Shown here: positions 563-63,935 of the stretch, piece after piece
How the letters are laid out: each line of letters begins with the position of its first letter
Numbering within the stretch: position 1 is the stretch's first letter
Virus record (IMG/VR): IMGVR_UViG_3300045988_062648
Coordinates: 1-64,000 of that record
Strand: one strand, 5' to 3'
Length of the DNA stretch: 64,000 bases
Origin: a virus
The notes under the pieces: model-generated
Databases searched by the model: none
What the model saw: only the letters and a program-made list of their open reading frames with translations
What the model was told of the DNA's origin: nothing
Made by a program: the position numbers and the translations under genes

Positions 563-606
563 CATCTCTTCTACGGGGGGGCGACTAATCAACTCTCGTA
601 GAAGAA
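563..606 (+). repeat. dispersed motif copy (forward, subtype B-like) paired with short inverted partner: TCTTCTACG-(21 nt)-CGTAGAAGA
   Basis: catctcttctacgggggggcgactaatcaactctcgtagaagaac in spacer between first two ORFs. Confidence 0.7.
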
Positions 607-3892: not shown

Positions 3893-4214
3893 AGTTAATG
3901 ATAGTGTGCAGCAATCTCTTCTACGGGGGGCGAGAGCCCAAGATAGTGCTAAAGTAAGTTATGACGATTTACGTATTGTAAATAGCAAACTTATTGAGCT
4001 TGAATATCTTAAAGTTGAGAATAATATACTTAAACAAGTTCATTCTACTGATAGTATTATTATTAAACTTAAAGATAATAATATAGAGCATTATAAAAAT
4101 ATTTACAATACTAAATCTGAACAATATAATAAAGTTAAATTTCAACGTGATATTGCTATAGGTAGTACAGGAGTTAGTATTGTTGCTTTAATATTAATGC
4201 TGTTATTAAAGTAA
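3816..4214 (+). CDS. small signal-peptide/Cys protein overlapping previous gene out of frame (o-spanin-like?)
   Basis: Track start 3792 is TTG; ATG at 3816 gives MQKLLKLKVLIMTALLICS... (basic n-region, hydrophobic core, Cys); overlaps 3590-3892 in another frame like Rz/Rz1; contains one copy of the dispersed motif (3915-3942). Confidence 0.3.
   Translation: MQKLLKLKVLIMTALLICSINLLGSEVNDSVQQSLLRGARAQDSAKVSYDDLRIVNSKLIELEYLKVENNILKQVHSTDSIIIKLKDNNIEHYKNIYNTKSEQYNKVKFQRDIAIGSTGVSIVALILMLLLK
3915..3942 (+). repeat. dispersed motif copy (forward, subtype B): tctcttctacggggggcgagagcccaag
   Basis: translated SLLRGARAQ within 3816-4214; GGGC-GAGA-GCCC hairpin with GNRA-like loop. Confidence 0.75.
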
Positions 4215-9355: not shown

Positions 9356-10681
9356 ATGGGAGAAAATGAACTTGATTTAGGTTTCCAGCCAACACTTAAT
9401 ATAGGTGGTGGGAACAAAGGAGAAGACAACACTAAGCCAAATGAAGAAATAACACATCTTAATGGTAAAGGTGACCCTACAAATCCTGAAGATGTAACAG
9501 GTAAAGATGGTACTAAACCTGGAGAACAACCTATAATAGAAGATTCTAATAAAGGAGAAGAAGAGAAGAAAGATGGTGTAGAGCCTGCAAACCCTTCTAC
9601 GGGGGGGCTAGAACCCAATTCTCAAATTGAATATGATGGCCAAGTATATACCGTAGATGAAAATGGTAATATAGTTGATGATAAAGGTCAAATATTTAAA
9701 GAAGCTAAAGATGTTGAAGTTTGGCTTAAAGAAAATGAAATAGTTGATGAAACAAAAGAGACAGATGCAAATAAGATTGATATTAAAGCAATACAAGATG
9801 CATTTGGTATAGAAGTAACAGATGAAGATGGTAAACAAGTTGAATTTACTAATGATGCACAAGGTCTTAAATCTTATGTAGATTCTGTTATTGATATAAA
9901 GTCTAAAGATATACAAGAAGCTACTATTAATAGTTTTCTTGAGAATAATCCTCTTGTTGCTGAATTTATTGATTATGTACAAGTTAATAATGGTAGTCCT
10001 GTAGGATTTGGAACAATTCCTGATAGAAGTAAAATTCAACTTAATAAGGATAATGAACAACAGCAAGAGTATATCATACGAATGGCTGCTAAAGAATTTG
10101 GTAATAATAGTCTTAATGATAATTACATTAAATATCTTAAAGACAGCGGAGGTTTGTATGATGAAGCTAAAGCTCAACTTGAAGCTCTTGTAAATAAAGA
10201 TAAACAAGTACGTGAGAATATAGCTAAACAAGCTGAAGCTCAACGTAAACAAGAAGAAGAAGATTTAGTTAATTATTGGAAAAATGTAAATTCTATTATT
10301 GAGAACAGAAACATTGCTGAATATAAACTTCCTGAGAGTTTTACAAAAGAAGTAGATGGTAAGAAAACAATAGTAACACCAAATGACTTCTTTAATTATC
10401 TGACAAGGCGTACAGTTGTTGATGAACAAGGTAATAGAATAACACCTTATCAAAGAGATTTATATGCAATAACCGAAGAGGAAGAACTTAATAAAGACTT
10501 ACTTGATGCTTGGTTAATGTTCACAGGTGGTACATATAAAGATTTAGTAGATATGGCAATTAAAGAAGATAATGTTCGTAAATTGCGTATTAAGTCTAAA
10601 GAACAACGTACTATTAAACCTATTAAGATTGTTAAGAAAGCAAATGGAGGTAAAGTTGATATTAATGATATTGTGTTATAA
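9356..10681 (+). CDS. acidic coiled-coil protein, putative scaffolding protein
   Basis: 441 aa, very acidic N-terminal half (GEDNTKPNEE..., EEEKKDG), helical KAQLEALVNKDKQVRENIAKQAEAQRKQEEE; located between portal and capsid genes; contains dispersed motif copy (9592-9618). Confidence 0.35.
   Translation: MGENELDLGFQPTLNIGGGNKGEDNTKPNEEITHLNGKGDPTNPEDVTGKDGTKPGEQPIIEDSNKGEEEKKDGVEPANPSTGGLEPNSQIEYDGQVYTVDENGNIVDDKGQIFKEAKDVEVWLKENEIVDETKETDANKIDIKAIQDAFGIEVTDEDGKQVEFTNDAQGLKSYVDSVIDIKSKDIQEATINSFLENNPLVAEFIDYVQVNNGSPVGFGTIPDRSKIQLNKDNEQQQEYIIRMAAKEFGNNSLNDNYIKYLKDSGGLYDEAKAQLEALVNKDKQVRENIAKQAEAQRKQEEEDLVNYWKNVNSIIENRNIAEYKLPESFTKEVDGKKTIVTPNDFFNYLTRRTVVDEQGNRITPYQRDLYAITEEEELNKDLLDAWLMFTGGTYKDLVDMAIKEDNVRKLRIKSKEQRTIKPIKIVKKANGGKVDINDIVL
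9592..9618 (+). repeat. dispersed motif copy (forward, variant): cccttctacgggggggctagaacccaa
   Basis: inside scaffold-like CDS (PSTGGLEPN). Confidence 0.65.
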
Positions 10682-15140: not shown

Positions 15141-15177
15141 CTACAACCTCTTCTACGGGGGTTGTAGATTTCAACTT
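15141..15177 (+). repeat. dispersed motif copy (forward, subtype A) embedded in an 8-bp-stem hairpin CTACAACC-tcttctacggg-GGTTGTAG
   Basis: ctacaacctcttctacgggggttgtagatttcaactt, 16 nt after stop of 14238-15125; terminator-like placement but no T-tract. Confidence 0.7.
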
Positions 15178-17648: not shown

Positions 17649-17654
17649 GATAAT

Positions 17655-20332: not shown

Positions 20333-20335
20333 ATT

Positions 20336-20740: not shown

Positions 20741-20741
20741 T

Positions 20742-21416
20742 ATGGAAAGAGTAATTTTGCAAGGAATCTACCAAGTGCTAAAAGACATGGTAGAAAAACA
20801 ACAAGAGAATCAAGAAGCTATGATAGCTAAACTTGATGAACTTAAAGTTTCAATAGAAAACATTAAGATAACTGTCGGTTCAATTAATATTAATACTGAT
20901 GAAGTTGAAGCCAAACTTGATACAGTAAATAGTAGTATTAATAGTCTTAAGACTAATATTGATGCAGTTAAAAATTCAGTTAATACAGTTAATACTTCTA
21001 TTACTACAATGGATGCAGTAGTTGATAGTATTAAAACTAATACTGATAATATTAAAACTAATCAGACTAATAATGGTACTAAACTTGATAATATTAAAAC
21101 TTCAGTAGATTCTAATGGTACTAAACTTACAACTATTGATACTGATATTAAAGCTGTAGCTACAGCAGTTAATGCTAATGGAGAAGCTATAATTGATGCT
21201 AAAGTAGATTATACTGAAAAATTTGATAATATCAAAACTAGTGTAGATGCAGTTAATACTAATATACAAGCTGTTAAAACTTCAGTAGATACAGGAGTTA
21301 CAACTATTGGTACTAAAGTAGATGCCATTGGTACTAAAGTAGATAGTGCTAATACTAAACTTGATAGTATTGTAGCAAATACTACTCCAGCAAGTAGTAC
21401 AGAGCCTACTGAATAA
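20742..21416 (+). CDS. tandem-repeat fibrous protein
   Basis: 224 aa built of repeating units such as GTKLDNIKTSVDSNGTKLTTIDTDIKAV / IGTKVDAIGTKVDSANTKLDSI; DNA-level direct repeats. Confidence 0.4.
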   Translation: MERVILQGIYQVLKDMVEKQQENQEAMIAKLDELKVSIENIKITVGSININTDEVEAKLDTVNSSINSLKTNIDAVKNSVNTVNTSITTMDAVVDSIKTNTDNIKTNQTNNGTKLDNIKTSVDSNGTKLTTIDTDIKAVATAVNANGEAIIDAKVDYTEKFDNIKTSVDAVNTNIQAVKTSVDTGVTTIGTKVDAIGTKVDSANTKLDSIVANTTPASSTEPTE

Positions 21417-21424
21417 TCATTCGT

Positions 21425-21454
21425 TCTCTTCTACGGGGGTTGTAAATCCCAACT
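21425..21454 (+). repeat. dispersed motif copy (forward, subtype A): tctcttctacgggggttgtaaatcccaact
   Basis: 10 nt after stop of 20742-21416; forms 15-bp inverted repeat with 21571-21596. Confidence 0.75.
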
Positions 21455-21485
21455 CATACTTCGCCAATTTGCCTATTTCTTTTGC

Positions 21486-21510
21486 GTCTGTCGGCTTTAA
21501 TCAGCTCTCG
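21486..21510 (-). repeat. short inverted copy of the conserved intergenic element (GCTGATTAAAGCCGACAGAC on minus strand)
   Basis: reverse complement matches GCTGATTAA...GCC(A/G)ACAGAG blocks of copies at 9071-9115, 25474-25516, 60568-60610. Confidence 0.4.
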
Positions 21511-21570
21511 TGAACAACATATCAGCTAAGTCATGTGAAACGGCTGACGGGCTTTAAAATGGGTCGGTCA

Positions 21571-21596
21571 CTACCACCCCCGTAGAAGAGATGATA
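21571..21596 (-). repeat. dispersed motif copy (reverse): ctaccacccccgtagaagagatgata
   Basis: reverse complement tctcttctacgggggtggtag; inverted partner of 21425-21454. Confidence 0.75.
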
Positions 21597-21628
21597 ACAA
21601 AGTTATTAATCTTAATTCAAATAAACTT

Positions 21629-24600: not shown

Positions 24601-24661
24601 TGTAGTTAAAGATTGTAATCTTAAATTTTATGGAACAGATAATAATGCAATTAGTAGATAA
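21629..24661 (+). CDS. tail fibre protein with collagen-like Gly-X-Y repeats
   Basis: 1010 aa; GNTGPQGETGPQGEIGPEGPQGPPGNDGHDGEDGKDG and GPTGAKGATGPAGDPGSPGSQGPAGIPG triple-helix-type repeats; N-proximal module shared with 16512-17648. Confidence 0.55.
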   Translation: MDIKTDNIDNIKALMANILDGHNGENLYAYLAKFNSLNVGYVANAKSAREAVPEIFRKNGLYITYYINNKPTTEIFVGDKTVAGNETEWVKDEYWEFSDGIGHVDSNSITLNQLSKEVLDLICANNEINIVNYPDGEDLTEFDVCGGNSKRAVNALRFANKEYNPANFSGLGRVYLRKNIIDDKNILTQDMINENNIRYIIQYAYDLNDATINIPTNSVLEFQGGSFTNGTLNCDGTVIMTYDKDWLDVTLSGTYFFFGWADSIEQVEIVNNLTTDDATKALSAAQGVVIKNLLDDASKALIDAQTEINQKFTQIAEQIQNITADIDIPTDKPAKPGLGDLWFNTTNKTLNYWNGTEWIELNDSFDSQKVSADVTDVQTVEANEEAEATAKIVNSQIQFTFKIPKGATGNTGPQGETGPQGEIGPEGPQGPPGNDGHDGEDGKDGVSPTLPNYSIYRYRKSDSKPATPTGTSQNPSGWTDIPNDAGNWWQCVGEVNGATGAVTRWGEVLPLNGRDGIAQDGKYTEMRFAVNTSRVTYPTIDRSVRTPSGWTLAAPSVSQGQYLWMTTAIINPNDTLNTNWNIPVCISGPTGAKGATGPAGDPGSPGSQGPAGIPGVNMLVMYCVGTDTHIGGTTEVTNHWKSSDVYVITVPSYQGLGTGWYKTIPDYDPSTQYIWCTQGKREYTSSTKYTETWNKPFRLNGLNGLNGEDGSGKRGQIVYPAGIYDNNTAYVTDENKAPYVLDTTDGYYYVLNAIMTWRGSEQGNRTPSQDYAINSGKYWLKFEGFNAIYAKIGIIANGLVGSAVFNGDWMFSQAGQNSSGGPSTQYENFNPSNPYGGAFRPNVAINLKTGEVYFGCDKTRFGADGSGKLANGNIKWDADGNIVYNGLLASLNVLEDTNVGVTYADITLPHLSAPDVDSEYQMEYTYVFGPKTRAGLTRRVQLEERNDTLYYNGGTFSGSGVLNIEDKIPSAYGFIKFICRIDGQDNTWYMVVVKDCNLKFYGTDNNAISR

Positions 24662-24980
24662 CTTTGATTTCGCACTGATGTTGATATTGAATGTAGTTAC
24701 TTATATATCAATTAAAATATTAGACGAAATAAATAAGGAAAAAAATGTTACTACTTGGCAAAAAAGAATTATATTTGTAGGAGTAAGTATAGTAATAGCT
24801 TTGGTTTATCATTTTCTAAGTGATGTAAGAACTATTGTAATAATTGATAGTATTATTATTGCTCCTGTTGCTTGGAGTTGGTTAGCTAAACCTATTGCTA
24901 AAAGATTTGGAATTGATTATAAACATTTAGATAGAAATGTCGAACAAATTAAAGAAAATGATAGAGAAGATGTCAGCTAG
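24630..24980 (+). CDS. small multi-pass membrane protein (holin-like?)
   Basis: 116 aa with 2-3 hydrophobic helices and charged C-terminus; overlaps fibre gene end by 32 nt. Confidence 0.3.
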   Translation: MEQIIMQLVDNFDFALMLILNVVTYISIKILDEINKEKNVTTWQKRIIFVGVSIVIALVYHFLSDVRTIVIIDSIIIAPVAWSWLAKPIAKRFGIDYKHLDRNVEQIKENDREDVS

Positions 24981-25179
24981 ACAAGATAACACTAGAGTTA
25001 TTAGAGCTGATACAATAAAATCTAGACCTGTTCAAAATTATTCTCCTTATGGTTCTCTTCCAACTAGAGAAATGCAAAGAGATCAACGTATGAGTAATAG
25101 ACCTAAACCAGTAGTCGCTAAAGCTGGTGTTACTCTAAATAATAGACGTTACAAAAATGGAGGTAAAGCCAAGTGTTAA
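24937..25179 (+). CDS. small basic protein
   Basis: 80 aa rich in R/K; overlaps neighbours. Confidence 0.3.
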   Translation: MSNKLKKMIEKMSARQDNTRVIRADTIKSRPVQNYSPYGSLPTREMQRDQRMSNRPKPVVAKAGVTLNNRRYKNGGKAKC

Positions 25180-25417
25180 GTTATATAAGATAGAACTATA
25201 TTTATTGAAGATAATACCAATGTTATTAGCATTGATAAACTTCATAAATATAGTTCTTTCTTTTAATGGTATAGATATACCTCTTTTAAGTTATATTGGT
25301 GGTATATCTTTTATACCTCTTATATTTCTTTATATAAGTAGTTATGTATTTAAATTTTGTGAATATCATAGAATGTTTCTACATTATATTGTTATATGTA
25401 ATGCTATAGATGTTTAA
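25157..25417 (+). CDS. small membrane protein
   Basis: 86 aa with two hydrophobic helices (IIPMLLALINFINIVL, ISFIPLIFLYISSYVF). Confidence 0.3.
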   Translation: MEVKPSVKLYKIELYLLKIIPMLLALINFINIVLSFNGIDIPLLSYIGGISFIPLIFLYISSYVFKFCEYHRMFLHYIVICNAIDV

Positions 25418-25452
25418 TTAAGTAATAATAATTCGAGCTAATTTCAGCCCTT

Positions 25453-25519
25453 ACAATCGCTCGTAACTCGTTGGCTGATAGTTACTTCACACCCGTTATT
25501 TCGAGCCGACAGAGGGCAC
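25453..25519 (+). repeat. conserved intergenic element copy C (diverged): ACAATCGCTCGTAA...GGCTGATAGTTAC...GAGCCGACAGAGGGCAC
   Basis: shares AATCG(Y)T, GCTGAT(T/A)A and (A/G)ACAGAG blocks, in same order, with copies A and B. Confidence 0.45.
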
Positions 25520-25647
25520 GTATGAGCCTCCTGCGAGGTTCTTAGCATTTGGTTTATTCAGTCAAAAACACTATATTTGCAATGTTGGAAACGTGCTGCA
25601 CTTGATATTGTAGTAAGCCGTGGCACTAATATTGAGATAGATAGTGT

Positions 25648-25675
25648 AGCAATACAACCCCCGTAGAGAAAGGTC
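25648..25675 (-). repeat. dispersed motif copy (reverse, slightly degenerate): tagcaatacaacccccgtagagaaaggt
   Basis: reverse complement cctttctctacgggggttgtattgcta; partner of 25781-25812. Confidence 0.7.
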
Positions 25676-25780
25676 GTTAATGTGTGTTTCTGTTAAGATT
25701 GCATCTAATTTAGTTTGTTTCATAGTTAAAAGGTTAGTAATAAAGTAGGTGAAGCTAATAGTGATATTCGCTAATCCATC

Positions 25781-25812
25781 AACTCTTCTACGGGGGTTGT
25801 AGTTTCCAACTT
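25781..25812 (+). repeat. dispersed motif copy (forward, subtype A): aactcttctacgggggttgtagtttccaactt
   Basis: perfect core plus extended TTGTAGnnTCCAACTT tail; 40 nt upstream of ATG 25854. Confidence 0.8.
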
Positions 25813-25853
25813 CTTTTGATAGTAATAATAGTAAAAATAATAAACTTAAATAT

Positions 25854-26564
25854 ATGGCTTCAGTTGCACAACTTGTTAGTGAACTAGCGCATAGTGTAGG
25901 TATGCCTAATAACAGAGCTTTACGAGAGAATCTTAAAAGTCTAGTTATTCATACTCGTAATGAAGTTATAAGACATAGTTATGAGAATCATGGTTATGTT
26001 GACAAAGGTCTAGTTCAAAGATATAAAGTTAGTCTTATAGATGTTCAAGATGGTGATATAAAAGAATTAGAAGGAATTAGTTTTGAAGATTTAGAACTTG
26101 ATGATTTAGAACTTACTAAAATTAAACGTACTGAGCAAAGAGTTCCAAAACCTGTTCGTCTGACTAATAATTTACCATTTGACCGTGTTAGCTCTGTTGG
26201 TTTTAAAACTAATAGAGCTTTTCCTTTTATAAAAGAGTCTTCTGCAAAGTTTAGAAAATCTGTTCCAGGTCTTTGTGGTATGCCTTGTTATGATTATATA
26301 AATGGTTATATTTATATATTTCCAGTTAGCAATAAACCATTTGATTTACAAAAGATTGTAATCGAGAGTGCTTTTGAGCATCCAACTCAAATAGAAATTG
26401 CTAATGGAGAAGTAGACGATATTGAAGGAACACTTGACCTTAATGAATGGGTTTTATCAGAAGATATGATAGGACAAATTAAAGAGATTATATATAAACG
26501 TGATTTACTATCTACTGTAAGACAAACGGATGAAGTTCCGAATACAGTTAAATTTAATGGTTAA
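25854..26564 (+). CDS. hypothetical virion/tail-module protein
   Basis: 236-aa ORF. Confidence 0.4.
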   Translation: MASVAQLVSELAHSVGMPNNRALRENLKSLVIHTRNEVIRHSYENHGYVDKGLVQRYKVSLIDVQDGDIKELEGISFEDLELDDLELTKIKRTEQRVPKPVRLTNNLPFDRVSSVGFKTNRAFPFIKESSAKFRKSVPGLCGMPCYDYINGYIYIFPVSNKPFDLQKIVIESAFEHPTQIEIANGEVDDIEGTLDLNEWVLSEDMIGQIKEIIYKRDLLSTVRQTDEVPNTVKFNG

Positions 26565-26567
26565 GAT

Positions 26568-27533
26568 ATGAATTTACAAAATGAAAAACCAAAGGCTGAT
26601 AAGCCTACTACTATTAGTATCTATTTTCATAAAATGCACGATAGAGCAGTTTATAGAGTAGATAAACTTGAACGAGAGTTAGAAGAAAAGAGATTAAATT
26701 GTATTGCATTAAGAGACGATGTTAAGTCTCAATACAATGTTTATAAAGATAAGTTTGGTATTAATCTTTTAAATTATAAAGAATTTGTAAATAATACTTA
26801 TACAGATGGTAGTTTTCGTAAAGCTGCAATGATGGCTTATCTTAATAGAAAGAATAATCATGAATTAACTATTGAGCTTTATAATCTAGTAAAACTAGCT
26901 AATCTTCAAAAACGAGTTAAAGAACTTGCTAAAGAGTATGAAGTTTATAAAAAACTTGCAGTAATTGGTTATAAAGAATATTGTAGAATAGTAAGTCTTT
27001 ATTACGAAAAAGTTCAAGAACTTATGATACTAGATGCAAAAGGTTATGCTTTTACTGGTAGAATGGGTTGGACTTGTATTAATAGATATAGGAAAAAATC
27101 AAACAATAATAAAATAGATTATGAAGCTACTAGAAAAGCTAAAGAAAAACTAATAGCAGAAGGTAAAAGACCTTATGATGCAGAAGAGGCTAAATGGTGT
27201 AAAGATAACGGTCTTCCTTATGATGGTGTAAAATATATTGTTCTTAGAAATGTAGAATACGATTATGAACTTCCTTTAATAGAAAGTCATATACCAGGAG
27301 GAAAAAGTTTTAAACATATTACTTCTGCTGATTATATAAATAAAGAGCTTAGAGGCAAGTCTTATGATGATATGATAGAGCTTTGTCATCATAATATAGA
27401 TGAAGTTCTAGATTTAGATATAGATATTAAAAAGAAACTTGCAATATGTCTTAGAATTAATCCTTTATTATATACTAAATATATTAGACATGAAAGTCAA
27501 AAATCATATAGACGTATCAAGATTGATTGGTAA
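26568..27533 (+). CDS. hypothetical virion/tail-module protein
   Basis: 321-aa ORF, lysine-rich helical. Confidence 0.4.
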   Translation: MNLQNEKPKADKPTTISIYFHKMHDRAVYRVDKLERELEEKRLNCIALRDDVKSQYNVYKDKFGINLLNYKEFVNNTYTDGSFRKAAMMAYLNRKNNHELTIELYNLVKLANLQKRVKELAKEYEVYKKLAVIGYKEYCRIVSLYYEKVQELMILDAKGYAFTGRMGWTCINRYRKKSNNNKIDYEATRKAKEKLIAEGKRPYDAEEAKWCKDNGLPYDGVKYIVLRNVEYDYELPLIESHIPGGKSFKHITSADYINKELRGKSYDDMIELCHHNIDEVLDLDIDIKKKLAICLRINPLLYTKYIRHESQKSYRRIKIDW

Positions 27534-28251
27534 AATAGACAATGACTTTAATATTAGTGAAAGTGATTGGATACCTAGAGTTGCAGCATGGTGTATAGAT
27601 GCGCTAGGACAAATGAAATGTTTACCATATGAAAAGAAATGTAGAAAGTTAGAAGTTAAAGATAGAGAAGCGTATTATCCTTGTCCTATCAATATGAAAG
27701 AAATAAGAGTATTTGATAGTCGAGGATGTGAGATTGAACCTGCTAAAAATAGTGGTTGTTGTAAATGTAATTCAGGATTAGATGCTAGTAATAATCAAGT
27801 ATCTAATTCTGAAATTGCCGTTATAGATACTACTAATAAAAGTGGAGTGAATTTCATGCAAGTTGCTCAAGTTGTTCAAGGTAATTCAAATCGTAATTTT
27901 GTAATACAAGGTCAATGTATTGAATTAAATTTTGATACAGATTGTATAACTGTAGAAGCTCTTGAAGTAGCTACATACTATGATGAATATTATGATTGTG
28001 AAGTTCCTTATATTTATGATAATGCTCTTCTTCTTGAAGCTCTAGCTTGGTATGTGTTATTTAAATATCTTAGTAGAGGAAGTAAACATCCTGTATATAG
28101 TTTAACTAGTCCTAGTCCAGTAACTAATCCTTATATACAATGGAATACTCTTAGAGTTCGCGCAGCTGTTGCTGTTCGTAATGAAATGTTTAAAGCAGAA
28201 GGTTGGAGAAACTTCTTTTATAATAGTACGTTTGATCCTAGAAATAGTTAA
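27490..28251 (+). CDS. hypothetical Cys-containing tail-module protein
   Basis: Track start 27439 is TTG; first in-frame ATG 27490; contains SGCCKCNSG. Confidence 0.35.
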   Translation: MKVKNHIDVSRLIGKIDNDFNISESDWIPRVAAWCIDALGQMKCLPYEKKCRKLEVKDREAYYPCPINMKEIRVFDSRGCEIEPAKNSGCCKCNSGLDASNNQVSNSEIAVIDTTNKSGVNFMQVAQVVQGNSNRNFVIQGQCIELNFDTDCITVEALEVATYYDEYYDCEVPYIYDNALLLEALAWYVLFKYLSRGSKHPVYSLTSPSPVTNPYIQWNTLRVRAAVAVRNEMFKAEGWRNFFYNSTFDPRNS

Positions 28252-28254
28252 GCT

Positions 28255-32209: not shown

Positions 32210-35200
32210 ATGAGTAATCGTAGAAGTCTTAAATGTGGTGGTAGACAAAAACTTGCTTGTGGTGGTAGACGTAAAGCATCGACTGGACTAGCAATAGGAT
32301 TGTCAGCTCTTAATAGTTTAGGAAGTATGATTGGTGGAATAGTATCTGCTAATGCTCAACGCAAAGCTATACAAGAATATAATGACCAACAAAGAGTAAA
32401 TAATCAAATAGCAAGTTCTAATAATTTAGCTGCTTCTGTAAATAGAAATATAGCTAGCAATAGAAATCTAAATAATTTTAATTTAGATGAATATATTGTT
32501 TATAAATACGGAGGCAAAACTCGTCCTAAGTGTAGTTTTGGAACTGTATTCGCTAATATAACTAAAGGTATTAACACATTTGCTCCTTTAGCAACTTCTT
32601 TAGCTGCTGCTGGAAGTACTGCCCCTACAAGTATTGGTACGTCTCTTCAACAAGATCTTATAAATAATGCTACTGATGCTAATATATTACGTCAAGCTGC
32701 CACACAAACATTTAAATGTGGTGGTCGTAAGAAAGCTCGTAGCGGTATAGCTAGAAGACTTGAAAGTCCTTATATTACAGATGGAGGAGTAGCTATTCCT
32801 CTTGGCAACGGATTATCTCTTCTACGGGGGGCGACACATGAGGACATCAATGAAACAGGTCAGACCGGTATTGGTATTAATACAGGTAAAGGAGAGATAG
32901 AAGCTGAAAATGGAGAAGTAATACAAAATACTGGTAAAGAACTTCGTATTTTTAGTGACCAACCAATATTTAATGGTATTAGCCCTGCTGATGCAGTTCA
33001 AGCTGGTTATAATCCTAATCGAGTATTTAATGCTCAAGAAAGAGTTAAAAGCAGACTTGGTATTAAAAATCCTAGTAAGAAAGCTCCTTGGGGAGATAAT
33101 GTAGATATACAAGAGTCAGATGCTACTAGAACTTATGCTACTCCATTTAATGAACGTGGACGTAGAACTTCTTATGCTGATAGTTATCAAGGATGGTTTG
33201 ATCCAGTTAGTTATCTTACTGGTAGTGCATTTACTATTGCAGATTATTATTCTACTAGACGTAGAGGTGAAACTCCTGAAGAATGGGCTGAGCGTCAAGC
33301 AGTAGAAGCACAATATCGTTCTACAGGTTATGCACCTAATGTTGGCTTTCGGGGAGGAATGGGTAGAAATGCAGTACAACGTGCAGCTACTACTAGATAT
33401 GCTAATCAAGTTAGAGGACAACAAATTAGACAAACAGGTAGATATAATAGAAATCAATTACTTTCTCAACAACTTGGAGAAGCAGCTCAAGCTAGAACTG
33501 CACAAGGTGCTAGACAAATTTCTAATAAAATACGAGTTAAAAGAGCAGGACAAGAATGGACTAATGCTGCTGAAACTCCTTATGCTCCTTATGCTGGTGC
33601 TGCTGAGAGCCGTGGTGTTGCTTATCCGTATGAGAATGCAGTTGGTACATTAAATCTACCTAATGCTAGAGCTGAACGTATTAGAACTTCTATTAATAGA
33701 AGAATACAAAATGCTAAAAATAGAATAAATCAACGTAGACAAAATAATACAAATAACAATAATACTAATAACACAGAAACTAATAATTCTAATAATCAAA
33801 ATGAAAGTTGGATTAGAAGAACTAGTCGTAAAGCAGCAAATACAGCTAAGACTTATGGTAAATATGGAGCTATGGGAGTTGGAGTAGGTGGACTTATTAC
33901 AGGTGCTATAGCTCTTGGAAATAGAGAAAGTATTAATACAGCAGGTACTAATAGAAATTCTAATAATCAACAAGCTGCTAGACGTAATACTTCTTCTCAG
34001 CAAAATAATAATCAACAAGCTGCTAAACCTACTAGAAGTCTTAAAGATATAGCTCGAGAAACAAATGCTGTTGTTAATCAAGACTTTTTATCTCTTAATC
34101 AACGTAATTTAATATATGGTGCTATTAATGTAGGAAATAAAAGAAATAATAATTCTAAAAAATCTCGTGGTAATAGAACTACTAGAGCTAACAGAAATAC
34201 ATCTAAACGAAATACAACTTCACGTAGAAGTCTTAAAGATATTGCTCGTTTTACTATTCCTAATTATATTCCTACTCCTACTAGAACTACTATAAGACGT
34301 GCTCAATCTGTTTATGATTTAGGTTTAACTAATGAACAAATAGATAGACTTAAAGAAGAAATTACTCAAATTCCATCTAGACCTAGAAAACGTTTTAGTG
34401 GACGTAGCACTACAACCCCCGTAGAAAGGATTGGTAGACCTAGATTTGTTATTGGAGGTTCTAATGCTTATGATTATACTAATCAATTTCTTAATAGTAT
34501 AGCTCCTGCTAGAGTAGTGGATAATAGACCTATTTGGCAAAGAAGTAATTTTAGTCTTCCACAAGTAGCTAATCAAATTACAGGACAATCTGCAAACAAT
34601 ACATCAGTAACATCTACAAATACAAATACTTCACCTACATTTAATGTTAGAAGTAATAATCTTGGAATGGATATAACTGGTAGAGATTGGATTGGTTTGG
34701 GTACTGATATACTTGGTAGTCTTGGTGTTGGTTTATTTAATGCTAATTCTTTAAAAGGGTTAGATGTTAATTATACTATTCCGCAATATGTAGATGAAAC
34801 TCCTGTAGCATTTGATACTACTTGGCATAATGGAGCACAGCGTGCTAATGTAGAACGTAATCGTATTAATGCTCGTAATATAATTGGACGTAATACAGCT
34901 TCAGCTAATACAGCGGTTCAACGTATGCAACAAAGTGATACTGACGCTATGATGCAACAGAATGTTCTTTGGGACGAAAAAGCTAATAAAGAAGCTGAAC
35001 TTAGAAATACTGCTGCTGCAAATGAACAACAAGTTCGTGCTAGAAATGCTGCTGCTAGAAATGCTTATTATCAGAATGTTGCACAAATACGAAATGCTGA
35101 ACAAGATGCTAGAAATAATATTAGACTTGCACAAGCTAATGCGATAAGTGGAAGTCTTGCAGGTTTAGGTCAAGCTGCATCTAACTTCTTAACTTCTGCT

Positions 35201-41600: not shown

Positions 41601-44600
41601 TGATAGACGTGCTAATACAGAAGTATTATCTACCACAAATCAAAATCCCGTACAATCGACTGAAACCTCGCAGACGAACAATCCATCAGCTGTCACGTCC
41701 GAAACGCCCACAGCGCAAGCAAATAGGCAAAACGGCAATGTTCCGCCAACTCAAACACCATCTCAAACGGCTACATCAGAGCCAATAAATGTTCGTGTTG
41801 GTACTCGCAGTGGTAATCCTTTTATTACTGCAATAAGTGATACAGGAGCACAAAATCAAAATGGTACACTTGTTCCTACAACAGTAGCTGGTCGTTATAG
41901 ACTGCAAACACAAGAAGAACAAATACTTAATAATGATAATTTCTATGATAAAGAGAATGGTGTTTCTGTTATAGATGGTGATTATAAAATTACTCAAGAA
42001 CCAATAGTCATACTTGATAATGATGGAAAATATGTTATAGAAGAGAAAGGATTATTGAGTAAAGTAAATGACGAGAAGCCCCCCGTAGAAGATAACGGTG
42101 GAACTCAACAAGGTGGAAACTCTTTTCAAGATGCTATTAGAGATAAAGAAACTCAACAAGGTGTAGTACAACAAAGTCAAGACGATGCAACCTCTTCTAC
42201 GGGGGGCGAGAGTCAAGTAGATAGTTTTATCCCAGTAGAAGATTTAAGTCAAGCTGTAGCTGCTAGAATGACTGATATCAATGTTCTTGACTCAAATCTT
42301 GATTTAGACGCTAAAGCTCAACAATATAAAGAACAACTTAATCCTGAAGAATTTGGTGTTACAAGAGAAGAACTTGATAGAGTTATAGATGAACGTATAG
42401 CTGGTTTTAAACAACTTAAAGAACATCTTGCTACACTTCAAAATCCTCAAGCTCAAGCTGCTACTGGAATAGCTTTTGCAGCTAGACTTATGGAACCTAC
42501 TAGTAATGTATTTTCATTAATGTTTGCTAGTAGTATGTCTAGTTTTGTTCAAGAATATGCTAAGTCAATGATTATACCAAAGACTACAGATGGTCGTTAT
42601 GTAATTAATCTTAGGTCTTTTCTTAGACAGCTTAGAGACGCTCTTGGCTCAAATAATAAAGATGTTATTCTTCCTATATATCGTCAAATTAAAACTTATT
42701 TCCTTAGTGCTGACGGTAAAGCAAATTATGTACTTGATAATTATGAAACGTTACTTGATGATAGTGTATTAGATAATCTTGATAAGTCTGTAGAACAAAT
42801 CAGACAAGAACAAAATAATAATGTAACGACATTAAGAGTAAATATTAATGACTTTATAGAAGCAGCCAATAACGTTTACGATGATGCTAGACGTCAAGAA
42901 TACTTTAATGTTCTTGATAATCTTAAAGTTGGAGATAAACTTACTCTTAGAACTCTCGATGGTTACATAGAAGTATCTAAAGGAAATGTAGTAGTAGGTA
43001 ATATGTCTATTGCTAAAGTTACTCCTGATGGTAGATATTATGTATATAATGAAGGTTGGAGAGAAGATGTTAATATTGGTTCTAATGGACAAATTATAAG
43101 TGATGCTAAACAAATAATAGAAGATATATTTACAGGACAGTCTGTAAATCATACTAGTCTTCGTAAAATTATTACTGATGCCATTACTGCTAGAGATATT
43201 TCAAAAAATCTAGTTAATCGTTTTGCAGCTAATCCTATTATAAATGATTTAGCTAATCGTTCTAGAGGAGAACAAGCTGGAGAAAGAATATTCTTTGTAG
43301 ATGATAAGACAGGTCTTATTGACTATGATAGAATACTTCGTCATCTTGTAAAACTTTGGAATTATTCTTTTGTTAGTAATAAATCAATAGTAACAAATGA
43401 TGATATAAAAGCTAGTCTTAATAATTGGTATGAAAAACTTTATCATACTTATAATAATATTAATTATCTAGCTCAACAACAAGATGTTACTGTTAGTTAC
43501 ATGAATGAAGGAGCTATTAATAGAAAAGTAGAAAATGATACAGCTAATGCTTATGAACAATTTGAATATGCTTCAAATGGTATTGCTGATTTATCTCAAG
43601 CTGCTCTTGGAATAACTGCTCCCATAACTAATACAATGGTAATATCAGGACATAATGGAGAATCTTCTACATGGAGTGCTGGTAGTACAGTTGTAGCTAT
43701 TTATAGTAGAAATACTAAACCTGATTTTGTTAAAGCTTATGGTCTTAGACTTACAACAGATGAAATGAAGCAAAATGCTACATTTAAAGCTATGAATGAT
43801 GCTATGCAGAATAGACTTATTTCTATTATAAATAGTTTAATAAGTAATAATTCTGATGAAAACTTTAGTAAACTTGTAGATACTATAACGTCCATTCTAG
43901 CTTGTAGAAATTTTACTGATTACGTAAATCCTAAGACTAAAGTTCCAATATATAGAGCTATGTCTGGAAGATTCCAAATTAGACCTGTTACTTATAGAAA
44001 TACTCCTAATATTAAAGGTATTGATATAATATATACAAGTCCTGATGGTCGAATGAGTAACTTCCATATTTATAATCATGGTGCTAATAGACCTCAAATA
44101 GGTTATAAACCGGCTAATACAAACAGATTTGTATTTACTGATACTGATAGTACTATTACTGGTTCTAGGATAGCTACTGATTTTATGAACTTTATAGCTC
44201 CTTATGTAAACTTTAATATAGCTCAGGCTGGTATAGCTCTTGATAATAATCCTAATGCTGATTATGCTGGTTTTATAACTCATAAAAACGGAAAAGTAGT
44301 TGTTAATATTCCAACAGAAGATAATACAATTGGATTTAATGAAGAATATGATAGTTATAGTCAATTTGTTCTTAGTAATAATCTAGTCAAAGTTAATACT
44401 TTTGTTGGTCAAAATGGTAAGAACTTTAGTTATCAAAATGGAAATCAACGTGCTAATCAAGTTCTTTATGTAGATAGTGAGTTGGGAACTACAACCCCCG
44501 TAGAAGAAACGAGATATATTAATTCTAACTCTGATGCAGCTCTTAATCAACAAGTTTATGATATACTTAACTCTAATGAGCCAACTAGTAATACAGGAGA

Positions 44601-48700: not shown

Positions 48701-51700
48701 GGTAGTATTAAATTTGAAGCTAAAACTTATCGTCCTGTATTTAAACCTGGAGTTAAAGATACAGATGGTTATAGATTTTATGACCTTGGAAAGAATGGAA
48801 GTGTAATTGAAGCATCTAAAACTGGTAATATTTCACATTATAGACTTGGAGGTAATGTATTTAAAAGTAATAAATTTACTGTAAAAGAACTTGGAGATGA
48901 TAATGTGCTACGTAAAGTCAATTATATGGAAGATATATTTGACGATAGTATTAATAGCACAGGAGCTGATGGTCGCATCAACCTTCTCTACGGGGGGCGA
49001 GAGTCCAAACTTAATATTGTTCGTAGTGATACTGGCTTAGTCACAGATGTTCAACTTACAGAAGCACAACAAGAAAGAGCTATTAATAATATAGTTAATT
49101 TCCTTAATAGTTACTTTACGCAAGCACAAGAAGAAGTTGCTAATTTTAATAATTTTGTTAAAGGTGTTCCAACTACTATAGATGCTGTTGTAGATTTTGC
49201 TGCTAATCAACTCATTACTCATTATGCTTATGATGACATATTTGAAGGTGGAGTAAAGTTCTATGCTGATGCTCAAACTGTACTTAAACGTGCTAAAGAA
49301 GTACAAGGTAGTGGAGTATCTTATGGTATTGTTGATTTTAATGATTCAAATATAGCTGATTTATATGATATTCCAAATGCTTATCTTAATAATGGTAAGT
49401 ATTCAGATTATACTAAAGAACAATATATTGGTGAAGATGGTAAACGTCATACTAAAGAAGTTCCTAGAACTAGAACTATTCAAGAAGTATTTGCTGGTAC
49501 TGAACTTGCTGGTATAACACAACGTAATGGCTGGCGAGCAGTTACTATTGAAAATAGTAAAAACACAAACTTTGCAGCACTTAAAGAACTTACAGGCGTT
49601 CTTGTTAAAGCAGGAATGAGTGAAGAAAATGCTAAAAATCTTCTTTATGGTCCTGTTGTAACAGATAAAAATGGTAATCCTATTTATGATAAAAATGGAC
49701 TAGAAAAACATAAAGGTGGTTATCAAGATACTAAAGTTAATGATGCACAGTCTTATATAACATTTAAAGAATGGGTTAGAAGAATAGCTGCAAGAGGTCA
49801 ACTTAAACGTTATATGCCACTTATTGAGAAACTTCTTGATCCAAATGCTGTACTTACTGATAATGACCTTAATGAATTTGTACAAGTTCAAAAGAATTTC
49901 TATTATGATTTACATTATGATAGTAGTTTTAATCGTTTTGTTCCTCGTCAAATTAAAAATGCAGAGTTTGTATTAGTTCCTCGTTTTATTAAAGGAACTC
50001 AACTTGAACGAGTCGCTCAAATGATGGAAGAAGCTAATATAGACCAGCTTAATACAGTTGAAACTAGTAAGGCTTCTAATCGTCATGTACTTACTCTTTG
50101 GGATAATGATGGAGAAATAAGTGAAGAACGTTATCAAAACTTTGCTAAAGAAGCAAAAGGAGTGGCTGAGATTTATTATTATAAATATCTTTATACTCAA
50201 CAAGAAACTCCGCAACATGTTAATACTACTAATAAAGCAGGTATTCAAATAGTCAAAAAGATGATTGATAATCTTGCTCAAGATGACCCTAATAAACTTC
50301 AATTCTTTGCTAATTATGTAGCTAATATTGAAGAAAGTTGGAGAAATCTTCTTGATAAACTTGATGTACCTCGTGATGAAAATGGTAATATACTTACTAA
50401 TCAAGATGGTCAAATACTAGGTATTAATAAAAAAGTTCTTTATGAAAGATTTAAAGAAGAACTTTATCGTACTGGCATTAATAGTAATATACTCGATTTT
50501 GTAACTCTTGATGAAACTACAAATCAACCTATTGCTCCTGCTATTAGCAATCTAGTTCTTGATAAAATAGAAACTACTCATCAAGCTATTTATAATAGTA
50601 AGATTACAAGACAGAAACTTCCTGGTTTCCATGCAGCGCAAGTAACTAATATTGGTTGGAAGAGATTAGATAATGGTGAAAGTAAATATTGTCTGAAAAC
50701 TAATGCTAATGTAATTATAAGTAAAGAAGAGTTTAATAATCTTGATGAAACAGAGAAAAAGAAATACCGTAACACACAAGTACAATATGATGGTAGCTTA
50801 CGTTATCATCCTAATGGAGAAGGTTATATTGAAGTAAAACTTACTTATAGTGCTTTAGGTATCAATAAAAATGATCCTCACTATATAGGAATGACTAATG
50901 CTGAAATCATTAAAGAACTTGAAGAACAAGGACTTGATAAAATTATTGGTTATCGTATTCCTACAGAAGGTAAACAATCAGTAGCTGTAATGAAAGTTGT
51001 AGACTTTATAGATGATGGTCTTGGTTCAACTATTGTAGTTCCTAATGATTGGGTTAGTCAAACTGGTTCTGACTTTGATATTGACTCTGTATATGGTATA
51101 ACTTTCGATACTCATAGAGGAAAAGGCGGCAAACTTATTAAAGCTAAATTTGTTGATGGAGATAATTATACTATTTCTGATTGGATTAATTATATAAAGA
51201 ATTATGCTGATAGAAATGCCAAAGGTTATGTTCGTCCTAAAATAAAACAAATTATAGATGCTATTAATAGTTCTGAACAAGAAGAATTTGTTAGTCTTAG
51301 AGCACAAGAAGATGAAGCATTTAAAAAATTTATTTCTGCTATACCTGAACAAAGTAGAGGTAAAATGGTAAATAGATTTAAGAATGAGGCTAAACGAATA
51401 AGAACTGCACTTGATGGAGCTAGTAATAAAGAAATATGGTCAGCTCAACTTGAAAAATATATTCAAATAGCTAGTGATCTTAAAGCTAAACTTAAAAATG
51501 CAAATACTATTGCATCTATAGATGAATTTATTTCTTCTTGTGATGATATACTTAATTTCCTTAATAATCAAGATGGAAGATTTGAACGAAAGAAAGATGC
51601 AGCTCTTGCTGAAGAAGAACAAAAACGTATAGATAAGTACAATGAAATAGCTAAAGAAGCTGGGCTTCTTACATTTGATGAATATTTTGATGCACTTGAC

Positions 51701-54700
51701 GCAGCTAAAACTCCAGAAGATTTTGCTAAACTTAATACCCGTCATGCTAGAAATAATGCTATTGTTCAATCTATGCTTAATATACTTCAAGATGTAAAGA
51801 ATCTTGAAGAAAATCTTTCTCGTTCTAATTCAGATGATATAGAAGCTAGTATAGATAAATGTCTTGGGGATAATGCTAAAGCTGAACGAGAAAATCGTAG
51901 CCAGTATAATGTATTTGACGAAATGCGTTATCAAGAAGAAGCTATGAGTGGTGCTGTCCTTAAAGGTGCTAGCGTATTTATGGATAGTGTATGTTCTATA
52001 TGTAATGTTGTTAAACCTACACTTCGTGGTGGTGTTAAAGTTTCTTATGATACTAAATTTTATAATCAAGAAGAAATTACCAAACGTTACGGTTTAAATA
52101 AAAATGATATTAGTAAAGGACGTATTCGTGTAGTACATAATCAATATGGCTGGAGTTCAGATAATAGAAATGTTATTGGACGACTTATAACACCTTATAG
52201 TTCAGAAACTACAGCTTATATTCTTGATGCTATCAAGAAAGGTGCTATGCCAAATGTTAATCAATTTACTTTCCCAGTTCTTAAACATTTGGTTAATCTT
52301 GGTATAGATTATGATACTGCTATATCATTTATGGCAAATCCTGCTATAAGTACAATAATACGTAATAATAATAGATTTAATTCTATTTATAGTAATGAGT
52401 TTGGAAATGCTATTCATGAAAGTATTAACGAAATAGCTCGTCAACTTGGTATAAAAGTAGATGAAAAAACACCTGTAATAAGTGTTCTTGCTTCTGTTCA
52501 ATCTAAGTTTGGCGATGTTATTAATAAGATATTTAAAGTAGATAAAGAAGACGTTAAATTTAGTCTTGAAGAAGAAGCTGCTGCTACTCTTGCTTTAATG
52601 CCTGATAAACTTATAGCAAGACTTAAAGATAATGGTATCTTTGGCACTACAACCCCCGTAGAAGAGAAGTTGATATTTGACTTAGGTAATATACTTATCT
52701 TTAATAGACTTCGTAATCAAGCACAAGAAATAGGTGGAGTAGCAACTGCTCTTAATCCAGATAAGTTTGGTGCTAAAATGAGTCTTTTTGCTACTAATCA
52801 AATATTTGATAAAATACTTGGACAAATATATACTGATAGTAGTTATGTAGAAGAAAGAACAGACCCTATTCTTAGTATTAATGGAGAACATATACTTAAA
52901 AGTATTTATCCAGGTATTACAGGAGACCCAGAAAATAGTATAGAACCTGGAGTTCCAGCAATGCTTAGAGCAGATATTAGTAAAAGTACTTATCCATCTC
53001 TTGCAGCATTTCTTAAATATGCTACAGCTACTTCTTCTGTAATTGCTAAACAAGTTCTTCTTACTCAACATCCAGCTTTTATTCGTTTTTGTAACGGACT
53101 TGCAACTAAGTTTAGTGATGTTGTACAAGAAATGGACGAAAAGCAATATAATGATTTTCAAAAGTATGCTATTAGTTATTTCTACAATAATGTAGAAAGT
53201 ATTAGGCGTCCAATTGTACCAGTCAAAAACGAAGATGGTACTTATAGTTATAATATAGATAATAGCGATACTCCAGACAATGCTACTATTTCAATAGAAG
53301 ATGCAGAACGTGAACGAGTATTTGGTTATAATAGAGTTCCAGCTTTATCTATAGTTGAAAAAGTACAAGTTACTAGAAATGGTAAAACTATTAATAAGAC
53401 TGTTACTCGTCCAATAGAAATAGAAAATCTTAATCATCCAACTCAAGAAGAACTCAATGATTTTGCTCAATTTAGTCCTGCACAAAAAGTTAAGTTTATT
53501 AAAACTCATTTTGATGATGCAGGAGTGTTCGATTATATTGATGTTCAACTTTATAATCCTACAATAAGAGGTTGGAGAACTGGTATGCAAACTCTTGAAT
53601 ATCTTGAATCTAACGTTGGTGACAATGTTATATTTAATATGTTCTATGAAGCATATAATAATCGTAATCCTCTTGTTGCTATGGCTGCTAGAGATGTAAT
53701 TAAATATGCAATACAAGTTGAAGGTTATCGTATGCGTCAAACTGCTGCTGGTAAAGTTATTAGTAATAAACCTCTTAATACTGGTTATGAAGAAGGTGGA
53801 ATGAATTTCTTTGCAGAAGTTGCTGAAATGTTTTCTACTATTGGTACAACAGGTAGTGCTATATTTGAACAAACTAGTATGGATGAAATATATGAGAGAT
53901 ATTTTAGAAGTCATATAGATAATCCTCATATTAAATCATTTAGACTTACTAATTCAAGTATGATTAAGTTTAATATTCATACTCGTAGTTACGATATGCT
54001 TGTAATGGAGAAAAAGTATGATGAAACTTCTGATGATGATAAAATAGCTAAAGAGTTTAATAATAATTGTGCTAAAGCAGGAATTAAAACTTATCATCCA
54101 GCTTCTAATACATATACTACAAATAATTATCTTAGAGTATATCGTGATAAAAAAGTTGTATTATATAAAATAAAAGATCTTGGTGATAAAGTTATACTTT
54201 ATCCTCTTAATAAACTTCAACCTAATGAAACTACTGAATGGTCAGCTAATGATAATAATAATGAATATCCTAATAAAATAACTTATGAAGGTATTATTCA
54301 TGATTATCAAAAACAACTTTTTAATGATGCTGCATTACAATTTACTAGTGGTTGGATAAAAGAAAGTAATAATGCTAGAAAACAAAATGGTGAAAATCCT
54401 GTAGTTTATTATAAGCATCGTAGAGATTATAGCAATCAAGCAGCTACAGTTGATTTCAATCTTGATAAACTTGCTAATGAACAAGGAGGTGCTTTAGCAC
54501 AAGCTCGTGAACAAATTAGAAGTAATTTTGAACGACTTAATGCTAAACATCTTTATATGCGTAATGCTGCTCTTGGTAATTATATATTTGTTCCAGGTTT
54601 TGAAAATGCTAGTAAGCAAACTATTACAATGAGAAATGGAGCTAAAAGTACATTCCTTATTGCAAAAGTAGATACAGACAGAAGTAGAACAAATAAACGT

Positions 54701-60046: not shown

Positions 60047-60073
60047 GTTGGGATATACAACCCCCGTAGAAGA
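60043..60073 (-). repeat. dispersed motif copy (reverse, extended): aagttgggatatacaacccccgtagaagagg
   Basis: starts inside stop codon of giant ORF; reverse complement cctcttctacgggggttgtatatcccaactt is the full subtype A consensus. Confidence 0.8.
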
Positions 60074-60291
60074 GGTGATGGTAGAAGTTGTAATACTCTA
60101 CTATTCACCTCTTTCTCTTTCTTAACATAATTTTGTAATTCTGTTTAATGCTGAAACAAGTAATATTACTATATTTGTAATACCGCTTATGCTACATATA
60201 TAATATGACTTGCATTTGTTCCTGATGCAGGTGGAGGACGAAAAGGAGCAGGAGTTCAAGCTAGCTCTCCTTCATCAAAAGTTAGCTACAA

Positions 60292-63745: not shown

Positions 63746-63775
63746 CTTGGGATATTAAACCCCCGTAGAAGAGTG
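63746..63775 (-). repeat. dispersed motif copy (reverse): cttgggatattaaacccccgtagaagagtg
   Basis: reverse complement ctcttctacgggggtttaatatcccaag; partner of 63901-63935. Confidence 0.7.
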
Positions 63776-63900: not shown

Positions 63901-63935
63901 CATTTCTTCTACGGGGGTTGTGTATCCCGACTTAC
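63901..63935 (+). repeat. dispersed motif copy (forward, subtype A): catttcttctacgggggttgtgtatcccgacttac
   Basis: intergenic, 130 nt downstream of its inverted partner. Confidence 0.75.

Follow-up and report, generated by a model that had tools for sequence, protein, structure and literature searches.

The DNA analyzed here, positions 1 to 64,000 of the virus record IMGVR_UViG_3300045988_062648 (hereinafter, the window), belongs to a crAss-like gut phage (Crassvirales) and contains, at 25.7 kb, a pair of inverted copies of a short motif just upstream of the gene for crAss tail ring protein 2. The nearest named relatives of this phage are crAssphage ctcc615 and cr271_1, both Intestiviridae, Obtuvirinae, with weak nucleotide similarity to the window. 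Among the window proteins, the crAss major capsid protein and the tail ring proteins 1 and 2 were recognized with Pfam, and the open reading frames (ORFs) include two giants of 2353 and 4780 amino acids. The ring protein 2 gene opens a run of ORFs on the same strand that extends from 25854 to 60046 (~34 kb); upstream of the pair lie a collagen-repeat tail fibre gene (21629-24661) and three small ORFs. Given that homology between the window and its nearest relative, L116 (contig IMGVR_UViG_3300045988_073497), begins exactly at 25418, the tail-fibre cassette is variable and the intergenic region that contains the pair conserved.

The reverse copy (25648-25675, AGCAATACAACCCCCGTAGAGAAAGGTC) and the forward copy (25781-25812, AACTCTTCTACGGGGGTTGTAGTTTCCAACTT) share an exact 15-nt core, TCTACGGGGGTTGTA, which occupies 25653-25667 (minus strand) in the former and 25787-25801 (plus strand) in the latter. 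The inverted pair described in an earlier reading of the letters of this DNA (hereinafter, the original prediction) is thus real, and so is the reported spacer of about 105 bp (25676-25780, exactly 105 bp). The same reading called the spacer AT-rich, but its GC content of 29.5% is about the same as the window mean of 30.4% and is nothing special; it correctly put the forward copy close upstream of the ATG at 25854, although the distance from the 3' end of this copy is 41 nt rather than 40 nt. When up to three mismatches are allowed, 13 occurrences of the 15-mer are detected compared to 0.36 expected, a count that was not reached in any of 100 shuffles.

The hairpin upstream of the ring protein 2 gene

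The RNA fold of positions 25640-25815 (-45.7 kcal/mol, z = -3.65) is one long hairpin, in which the interior is paired along with the two motif copies that close the stem. To place this element in an evolutionary context, 61 related loci were gathered by scanning viral contigs for the 14-mer of the motif and by searching with the ring protein 2 gene. In most of these relatives, a hairpin with its 3' end ~12-65 nt before the ATG (the range searched) is the best inverted repeat, and upstream of the ring protein 2 orthologue in many of them, the hairpin ends 18-55 nt before the ATG. Motif-like arms are present in ~21 lineages, and in the others only weak AT-rich stems were returned. In the arm alignment of these 21 lineages, in which the arms were picked with an inverted-repeat finder, 88.7% of the cells are paired compared to 74.5% after shuffling (none of 500 shuffles reached the observed value) and 40-55% in slid controls, and 13 of 16 arm pairs are changed on both sides. 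In L126, L130 and L166, the arms no longer fit the motif and yet have co-varied (Table 1). What the relatives conserve at the 25.7-kb position is a hairpin, not the orientation of a DNA segment. The original prediction had made conservation of the pair in related genomes its touchstone; the pair is indeed conserved, but as a hairpin with compensatory changes and not as two alternative states.

Tight pairs of motif copies (at most 300 nt apart) are not confined to this locus. The crAss-like loci contain 50 distinct pairs with 40 to 293 nt between the paired copies, of which 34 have the reverse-forward and 16 the forward-reverse arrangement; none is in direct orientation. The mirrored pair that had been noticed at 21.4 kb in the window exists as well (forward core 21430-21444, reverse core 21572-21586), and its RNA fold (-61.1 kcal/mol, z = -5.8) is stronger than that of the 25.7-kb element. 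It had been suggested that the two pairs are alternative orientations of one module. This is not supported: their interiors share no similarity, and given that both mirrored arrangements are normal in the relatives, the two pairs are not two states of a single module. The second option that had been offered, orientation-independent use of the site, agrees with the presence of 10 copies on the plus strand and 8 on the minus strand of the window and with the abundance of both mirrored pair types in the relatives.

Upstream of the 5' arm, there is a Bacteroidetes-type promoter match, TTTG-N20-TATATTTG, that is conserved in L116, and promoter activity of this segment (25548-25579) is inferred from the pattern. 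Middle and late genes of the crAss-like phage phi14:2 undergo transcription by the RNA polymerase of the host from promoters of this kind, according to published work. Twelve distinct relatives share this layout: a full-consensus match precedes the 5' arm, and the stretch from the hairpin to the ATG has none. In some lineages, the intergenic gap is only ~100 nt long and is filled by the hairpin, with 22-26 nt left before the ATG; given that such gaps have no room for a promoter after the hairpin, the hairpin does not appear to be a strong terminator. Scans for sigma-70-type promoters and for terminators gave counts at or below the shuffle expectation.

The dispersed motif

Both arms of the hairpin are copies of an asymmetric motif of ~19 nt, YYYYY-TACGGGGG-nGnTA, that is scattered over the window (Table 1). 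The logo derived from 131 distinct copies in the window and its relatives consists of five positions with C or T only (A or G below 3%), the invariant TACGGGGG and the weaker nGnTA, altogether at least 13 constrained positions; in some copies, CCAAC follows nGnTA after about 10 nt. The 8-mer TACGGGGG occurs 18 times in the window compared to 0.09 expected, with none of 100 shuffles reaching this count, and a position-weight scan returned exactly these 18 copies, all scoring above 22 bits. No sequence scored between 12 and 22 bits, which indicates that there are no decaying copies. Beyond ~30 nt, the sites are no longer similar to each other, and the four tight pairs in the window have unrelated interiors.

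The copies are not restricted to intergenic regions. Eight of the 18 window copies lie inside long ORFs, where those in the sense orientation use all three frames and those in the antisense orientation use a stop-free frame. In the larger set, 85 of 129 distinct copies are in ORFs (52 sense and 33 antisense), with every sense frame in use along with the two antisense frames that are free of stops, and 25 sense and 18 antisense copies are between genes. On average, there is one motif copy per ~4-5 kb, counting both strands, and the spacing is more even than random, with a coefficient of variation of the gaps of 0.38 in the window (p = 3e-4) and 0.42 in ctcc615 (p = 2e-4); the largest gaps between site loci in these two genomes are 7.7 and 8.8 kb, respectively. 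In cr271_1, the evenness is not significant (p = 0.06), owing to one 17-kb gap. This gap (14933-31907 of cr271_1, locus L178) is the sole long motif-free stretch of that genome; it begins shortly before the major head gene, reaches as far as the homologue of ring protein 2 and includes an annotated tail-fibre gene; recently exchanged DNA that is yet to acquire sites is one possible reading.

The complete genomes of two other genera contain 17 (cr271_1) and 19 (ctcc615) copies of the motif, on both strands and in both genome arms, and in both of these genomes the full motif surrounds every TACGGGG. When the window is compared with cr271_1, five sites share the alignment column and the orientation in proteins that are only 31-55% identical, four of them in giant proteins with 31-37% identity (Table 1). 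A sixth orthologous site (3922 in the window, 7011 in cr271_1) is in a different frame, five columns apart, and 16 relatives retain the site in gene 32210-35449, where it is read in two frames and encodes LLRG or YGG. Given that sites are retained at fixed columns and, in the latter two cases, with differing frames, selection acts on the nucleotide sequence and not on the protein. More distant lineages contain variants such as YYTTTACGGGGCGGCT. Bacteroides phage crAss001 (MH675552, Steigviridae; L300 and L301), a member of another crAss family, has no TACGGGG at all and carries a dispersed motif of its own, YYCTTCTGGAG, with 28 copies of the core (CTTCTGGAG); a looser pattern matches 32 sites compared to ~5 expected, on both strands and mostly in genes. 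This may be a similar type of signal with a different sequence; the two motifs resemble each other in style and may or may not be related.

The motif of the window is sharply defined, conserved and apparently undescribed: a description of either this motif or that of crAss001 was not found in the searchable literature. In bacterial genomes, the 14-mer yields scattered single matches only and is not a repeat, and the composition of the flanks of single copies carries no A-tract or T-tract signal. The possibility that each copy folds locally into a small hairpin, YYYYC(UACG)GGGGG with G-U pairs, was rejected because the folds of the 18 copies are inconsistent and the flanks do not co-vary. Nor do the motif sites mark breakpoints of homology with the nearest relative, the break being at 25418 and not at the pair. 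As a separate observation, the plus strand of the window contains 18 GGGGG and 9 CCCCC runs (overlaps counted), which, judging by these counts alone, appear largely confined to motif copies; if so, G5 and C5 runs are avoided elsewhere in the genome.

Table 1. Positions of the ring protein 2 gene, the promoter match, the stem-loop and the motif copies in the window, and sequences of the hairpin arms in relatives
Feature	Coordinates	Strand	Remarks
crAss tail ring protein 2 gene	25854..26564	+	Pfam PF25702 CrAss_Ring_2, E = 1.2e-49
Bacteroidetes-type promoter match	25548..25579	+	TTTG-N20-TATATTTG; pattern match, conserved in L116
Imperfect stem-loop of ~150 nt closed by both copies	25653..25803	+	RNA fold
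Reverse motif copy, 5' arm of stem-loop	25648..25675	-	exact core 25653-25667; position-weight score 26.1 bits
Forward motif copy, 3' arm, extended CCAAC tail	25781..25812	+	exact core 25787-25801; 30.9 bits
Motif copy, forward arm of 21.4-kb forward-reverse pair	21424..21445	+	
Motif copy, reverse arm of 21.4-kb pair	21571..21592	-	
Motif copy, intergenic	564..585	+	degenerate reverse partner ~591-608
Motif copy in ORF 3792-4214	3914..3935	+	30 nt past stop codon at 3892
Motif copy in ORF 9356-10681	9590..9611	+	window 9598 in same alignment column as cr271_1 14933
Motif copy in 60-nt intergenic gap	15146..15167	+	
Motif copy in ORF 32210-35449	32815..32836	+	orthologous sites in 16 relatives, two frames
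Antisense motif copy in ORF 32210-35449	34410..34431	-	
Motif copy, reverse arm of in-ORF reverse-forward pair, 2353-aa gene	42074..42095	-	
Motif copy, forward arm of in-ORF pair	42190..42211	+	window 42198 in same alignment column as cr271_1 47771
Antisense motif copy, 2353-aa gene	44489..44510	-	window 44495 in same alignment column as cr271_1 50249
Motif copy, 4780-aa gene	48981..49002	+	window 48989 in same alignment column as cr271_1 55548
Antisense motif copy, 4780-aa gene	52647..52668	-	window 52653 in same alignment column as cr271_1 59063
Motif copy ~10 nt past stop codon of 4780-aa gene	60055..60076	-	cr271_1 counterpart at 66210
Motif copy, reverse arm of reverse-forward pair at right end of window	63754..63775	-	
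Motif copy, forward arm of right-end pair	63902..63923	+	
Hairpin arms, L118			CCTCGCCCGTAG / CTACTGGCGAGG
Hairpin arms, L126			CGCTCCACAGAAG / CTTCTGTGGAGCG
Hairpin arms, L130			AAGTTGCTATAGA / TCTATAGCAACTT
Hairpin arms, L142 and L145 group			CCGCCCCGTAGAAG / CTTTTACGGGGCGG
Hairpin arms, L166			ACCCTAGTAGAGA / TCTCTACTAGGGT

Possible roles of the pair and of the motif

On the strength of these sequence comparisons, we consider it plausible, if somewhat short of probable, that the 25.7-kb pair is a transcribed leader or intercistronic hairpin that is built on the dispersed motif and acts as an RNA stem-loop. Under this scenario, the element would be transcribed in the leader of the operon and would be intercistronic in those relatives that have short intergenic gaps. 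The stem-loop could shape the fate of the mRNA as an exonuclease barrier, as a processing site of the RNase III type, or as an attenuation or antitermination structure, and in the last case the stretch under its control would be the long same-strand gene run that follows the hairpin. Given that the conserved antisense copies inside genes cannot act through mRNA, the dispersed motif must have a second function, either on DNA or on both strands, in which a phage-encoded factor would recognize it.

Several considerations weigh against this interpretation. The putative promoter rests on a consensus match and its conservation, not on a mapped start site. Neither the single copies nor the antisense copies that are conserved in genes are accounted for by a function in RNA, so that two layers of function are needed. 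The choice of the arms with an inverted-repeat finder biases the covariation count toward pairing. The sense strand of the pairs folds better than the antisense strand (-2171 compared to -1832 kcal/mol, with 349 and 152 G-U pairs, respectively), but this asymmetry was rejected as a signature of RNA given that random segments of the same loci are equally asymmetric (p = 0.34); the sense advantage and the G-U excess being genomic background, RNA cannot be separated from single-stranded DNA as the molecule that folds. Finally, the rule that tight pairs are always inverted could in part reflect survivorship, direct repeats 100 nt apart being lost by deletion.

Alternatively, the motif could be an initiation or priming signal on single-stranded or unwound DNA that is used by the phage primase or by the crAss virion RNA polymerase, a scenario that we regard as rather unlikely. 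Purine-rich RNA would start across the pyrimidine tract, either strand would be used, sites would be kept no more than ~8 kb apart, and the inverted pairs would be two-strand, origin-like units. The architecture of the motif, with the five C/T-only positions at the 5' side and the invariant TACGGGGG at the 3' side, is in line with such a signal, and so are the occurrence of sites on both strands, their even spacing with largest gaps of 7.7-8.8 kb in two genomes, the retention of site positions across genera, and the dispersed motif of similar style in a different crAss family. T7 primase sites and the purine-run starts of T7 and SP6 promoters have the same polarity as the motif, and SP6 transcripts begin with GAAGAG; the reverse strand of the motif reads CCCCCGTA-GAAGAG. 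This, however, is a resemblance of architecture, and the motif orientation lacks a replichore-like switch. As for the candidate enzymes, the virion polymerase of crAss-like phages accepts single-stranded DNA as a template for transcription, but not double-stranded DNA, and lacks a known promoter motif, and no common upstream motif was found for the early transcripts of phi14:2 (bioRxiv 10.1101/2020.03.07.982082). The annotated primase of cr271_1 matched neither Pfam nor sequences in the PDB, so its assignment to a sequence-specific type is not established, and crAss001 and ctcc615 carry primases of the DnaG type according to the annotations of their records. DnaG-type primases are known to recognize trinucleotides. 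The hairpins that outlast the loss of the motif from their arms are left unexplained by an initiation signal. Were this scenario nevertheless correct, the motif would be both the recognition and the initiation signal of a crAss-encoded nucleic-acid enzyme, either the virion RNA polymerase or a sequence-specific primase.

It is unlikely that the motif is bound, as double-stranded DNA, by a phage-encoded protein with sequence specificity, whether an architectural protein (HU/IHF-like) or one akin to a repressor (the site then being a "stoperator"). In this case, the pair past the promoter would be a cooperative roadblock or a looping site that times the late operon. An asymmetric, all-or-none motif of 13-19 bp that is used on either strand would suit such a hypothetical protein, lineage-specific variants of the motif are expected if protein and site co-evolve, and the pair does lie just downstream of the promoter match. 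HU/IHF-like genes are annotated in crAss001, and ORF 649-1176 of the window has a weak HU-like Pfam match (PF00216, E = 0.009, below the curated cutoff). Five adjacent C/T-only positions are unusual for base-specific readout of double-stranded DNA, spacers of 40-293 nt are at odds with a fixed dimer geometry, and the compensatory changes by which arms abandon the motif suggest base pairing and not a site for a protein.

That the pair is an intrinsic terminator working in both directions, by which the variable tail-fibre cassette would be insulated from the operon that follows, appears quite improbable. The base of the stem is GC-rich (CCCCC/GGGGG) and is followed by U-rich sequence (UUGUAGUUU...CUUCUUUUG), likewise in the relatives, and the motif copy after the giant gene, at 60.06 kb, also forms a terminator-like hairpin. 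The loop, however, is 40-190 nt long (over 100 nt in the window), the U tract is interrupted, and the terminator scan made no call on the 25.7-kb hairpin. Moreover, the promoter match is upstream of the hairpin and not after it, and in lineages with ~100-nt gaps, the downstream gene would be left promoterless.

It is very improbable that the pair represents a miniature mobile element, such as a miniature inverted-repeat transposable element (MITE) or a REPIN-like element, with the motif as its terminal inverted repeats, even if inverted terminal copies flank 100-150 bp, the copies are dispersed, and some of them are in frame in genes, similar to the Rickettsia palindromic elements. The motif also contains GTAG, as do REP (repetitive extragenic palindromic) sequences. 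The interiors of the pairs are unrelated, however, with similarity ending at ~30 nt; forward-reverse and reverse-forward arrangements both occur, so that the motif has no consistent outer end; the bimodal scores leave no room for decaying copies, and across genera the sites keep their positions and orientations. Neither a transposase nor a RAYT family was detected in the window, the motif is not a repeat in bacterial genomes, and presence/absence polymorphism of a whole element has not been seen so far.

The remaining scenario, an invertible DNA switch in which a recombinase flips the 105-bp segment, is not supported and can be considered extremely improbable: it is suggested by the perfect 15-nt inverted repeats beside a gene start and by the mirrored pair 4 kb away, with the tail-fibre cassette between the two, but recombinase, resolvase, integrase and transposase families are absent among the 38 window proteins examined with Pfam (about one third of the genome is outside the window) and no recombinase or transposase is annotated in cr271_1, the sole TAnnTTTG match near the pair (25572-25579) is outside the repeats and both strands of 25676-25780 are free of such matches, a flip of the self-complementary interior would alter little, L116 is collinear through the element, the loop of 3-17 nt in many relatives is too short to invert, and the same motif is found as conserved single copies inside genes. 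The 25.7-kb pair should not be catalogued as a phase-variable switch.

Comparison with known systems and additional observations

Among the known systems, the 25.7-kb pair is most similar to the REP/BIME (bacterial interspersed mosaic element) repeats, including REPINs, of enterobacteria and pseudomonads and to the RNase III hairpins of phage T7, although it fails the tests for membership in the REP class. Similar to the motif, REP/BIME are dispersed short repeats that occur singly or as inverted pairs forming hairpins in transcribed intergenic regions, and these hairpins affect mRNA stability. Unlike REP, however, the motif unit is not a palindrome, about two thirds of its copies are in ORFs, its positions are fixed across genera, and it resides in a phage; the Y1 transposase of REP systems (RAYT) is not represented by a Pfam family in the window and is not annotated in three relatives. 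The T7 RNase III sites are, likewise, long irregular hairpins that recur between genes of polycistronic phage transcripts and share sequence features, but they are found only in the sense orientation and only between genes, whereas the motif also occurs as single copies that are unable to form a stem.

The stoperators of cluster A mycobacteriophages (L5) are comparable as asymmetric ~13-bp sites present in tens of copies, also in transcribed regions past promoters; they differ in being intergenic, in one orientation, and in belonging to temperate phages with a known repressor, whereas the crAss motif is present in both orientations and mostly in coding sequence. By architecture only, the motif can be likened to priming and initiation signals such as ssiA/ssiB of RSF1010, T7 primase sites and promoters of single-subunit RNA polymerases, which combine an invariant block with a two-letter templating tract and are used on both strands; ssiA/ssiB would also match it in forming inverted pairs, and the ori/promoter elements of yeast mitochondria, in which GC clusters flank AT-rich DNA in an AT-rich genome, would offer a further parallel. 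Invertible promoters and shufflons (Hin/Gin, the invertons of Bacteroides) share with the 25.7-kb pair the inverted repeats around a short segment beside a gene, the setting of the pair being a phage with a Bacteroidetes-type host, but in the window no recombinase was found, the segment contains no promoter, and the repeats are members of a genome-wide motif. A Chi-like recombination hotspot was rejected given that it requires a host-enriched motif of 5-8 nt, in contrast to the number of constrained positions and the scattered bacterial matches described above. The unusual feature of the crAss motif is that it is held at fixed positions within genes, in all frames, on both strands and with even spacing. 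The phages most abundant in the human gut belong to the Crassvirales, and the cis-acting signals of this group, such as origins, signals of the virion RNA polymerase and RNA processing sites, are largely undescribed; crAss001 is a cultured model with a dispersed motif of its own, which makes the function of such motifs directly testable.

Several features of the window accompany the main elements. The segment 25418-25547, upstream of the promoter match, is a block of ~41% GC that is conserved in L116 (CGCTCGTAACTCG.TGGCTGATAG and CAGAGGGCA), and other relatives have recurrent words similar to AGGGCA upstream of their promoter match; a tripartite crAss middle/late promoter has been described for phi14:2, and the block may be the third part of such a promoter, or else a small RNA. 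Another full match to the Bacteroidetes-type promoter is located at 9287-9317 and shares the A-rich lead-in (CATCAAAAAGCTATATTTG); it falls in a gap of 418 nt, upstream of the gene that is followed by the major capsid gene. The GC content, which is 18-24% at 18-21 kb, jumps to 32-37% within the collagen-repeat tail-fibre gene, at 22-24 kb; this jump (19000-24000), together with homology to L116 only from 25418, is consistent with a swapped host-range cassette.

The 21.4-kb element (21424-21592), which is located between a coiled-coil gene and the tail-fibre gene, has a 121-nt interior with 44.6% GC, compared to 30% in the genome, and its own 11-bp stem (GUCUGUCGGCU/GGCUGACGGGC). It could be a structured non-coding RNA; an Rfam search of 21300-26000 with E-values up to 1 gave no matches.

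Three further sites show peculiarities of their own. ORF 649-1176, the gene with the weak HU/IHF-like match, has a motif copy with a degenerate inverted partner 77 nt upstream. At 42074-42245, in the 2353-aa gene, a third copy that is degenerate and reverse-like (CCCAGTAGAAGAT, ~42231) comes after the reverse-forward pair; given that cr271_1 has the forward copy alone at this position, the reverse copy was gained in the lineage of the window, within a low-complexity linker. At 60044-60135, directly past the stop codon of the 4780-aa gene, the reverse copy has a purine tract (AGAAGAGGTGA) whose pairing partner, TCACCTCTTTCT, is located 26 nt downstream and is followed by CTTTCTT, a terminator-like configuration. 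Downstream of this hairpin, there is a TATATTTG box (60170) and then a tRNA-Gln gene (60292-60363), the sole match to Rfam (Rfam 15) at the gathering threshold in the window.

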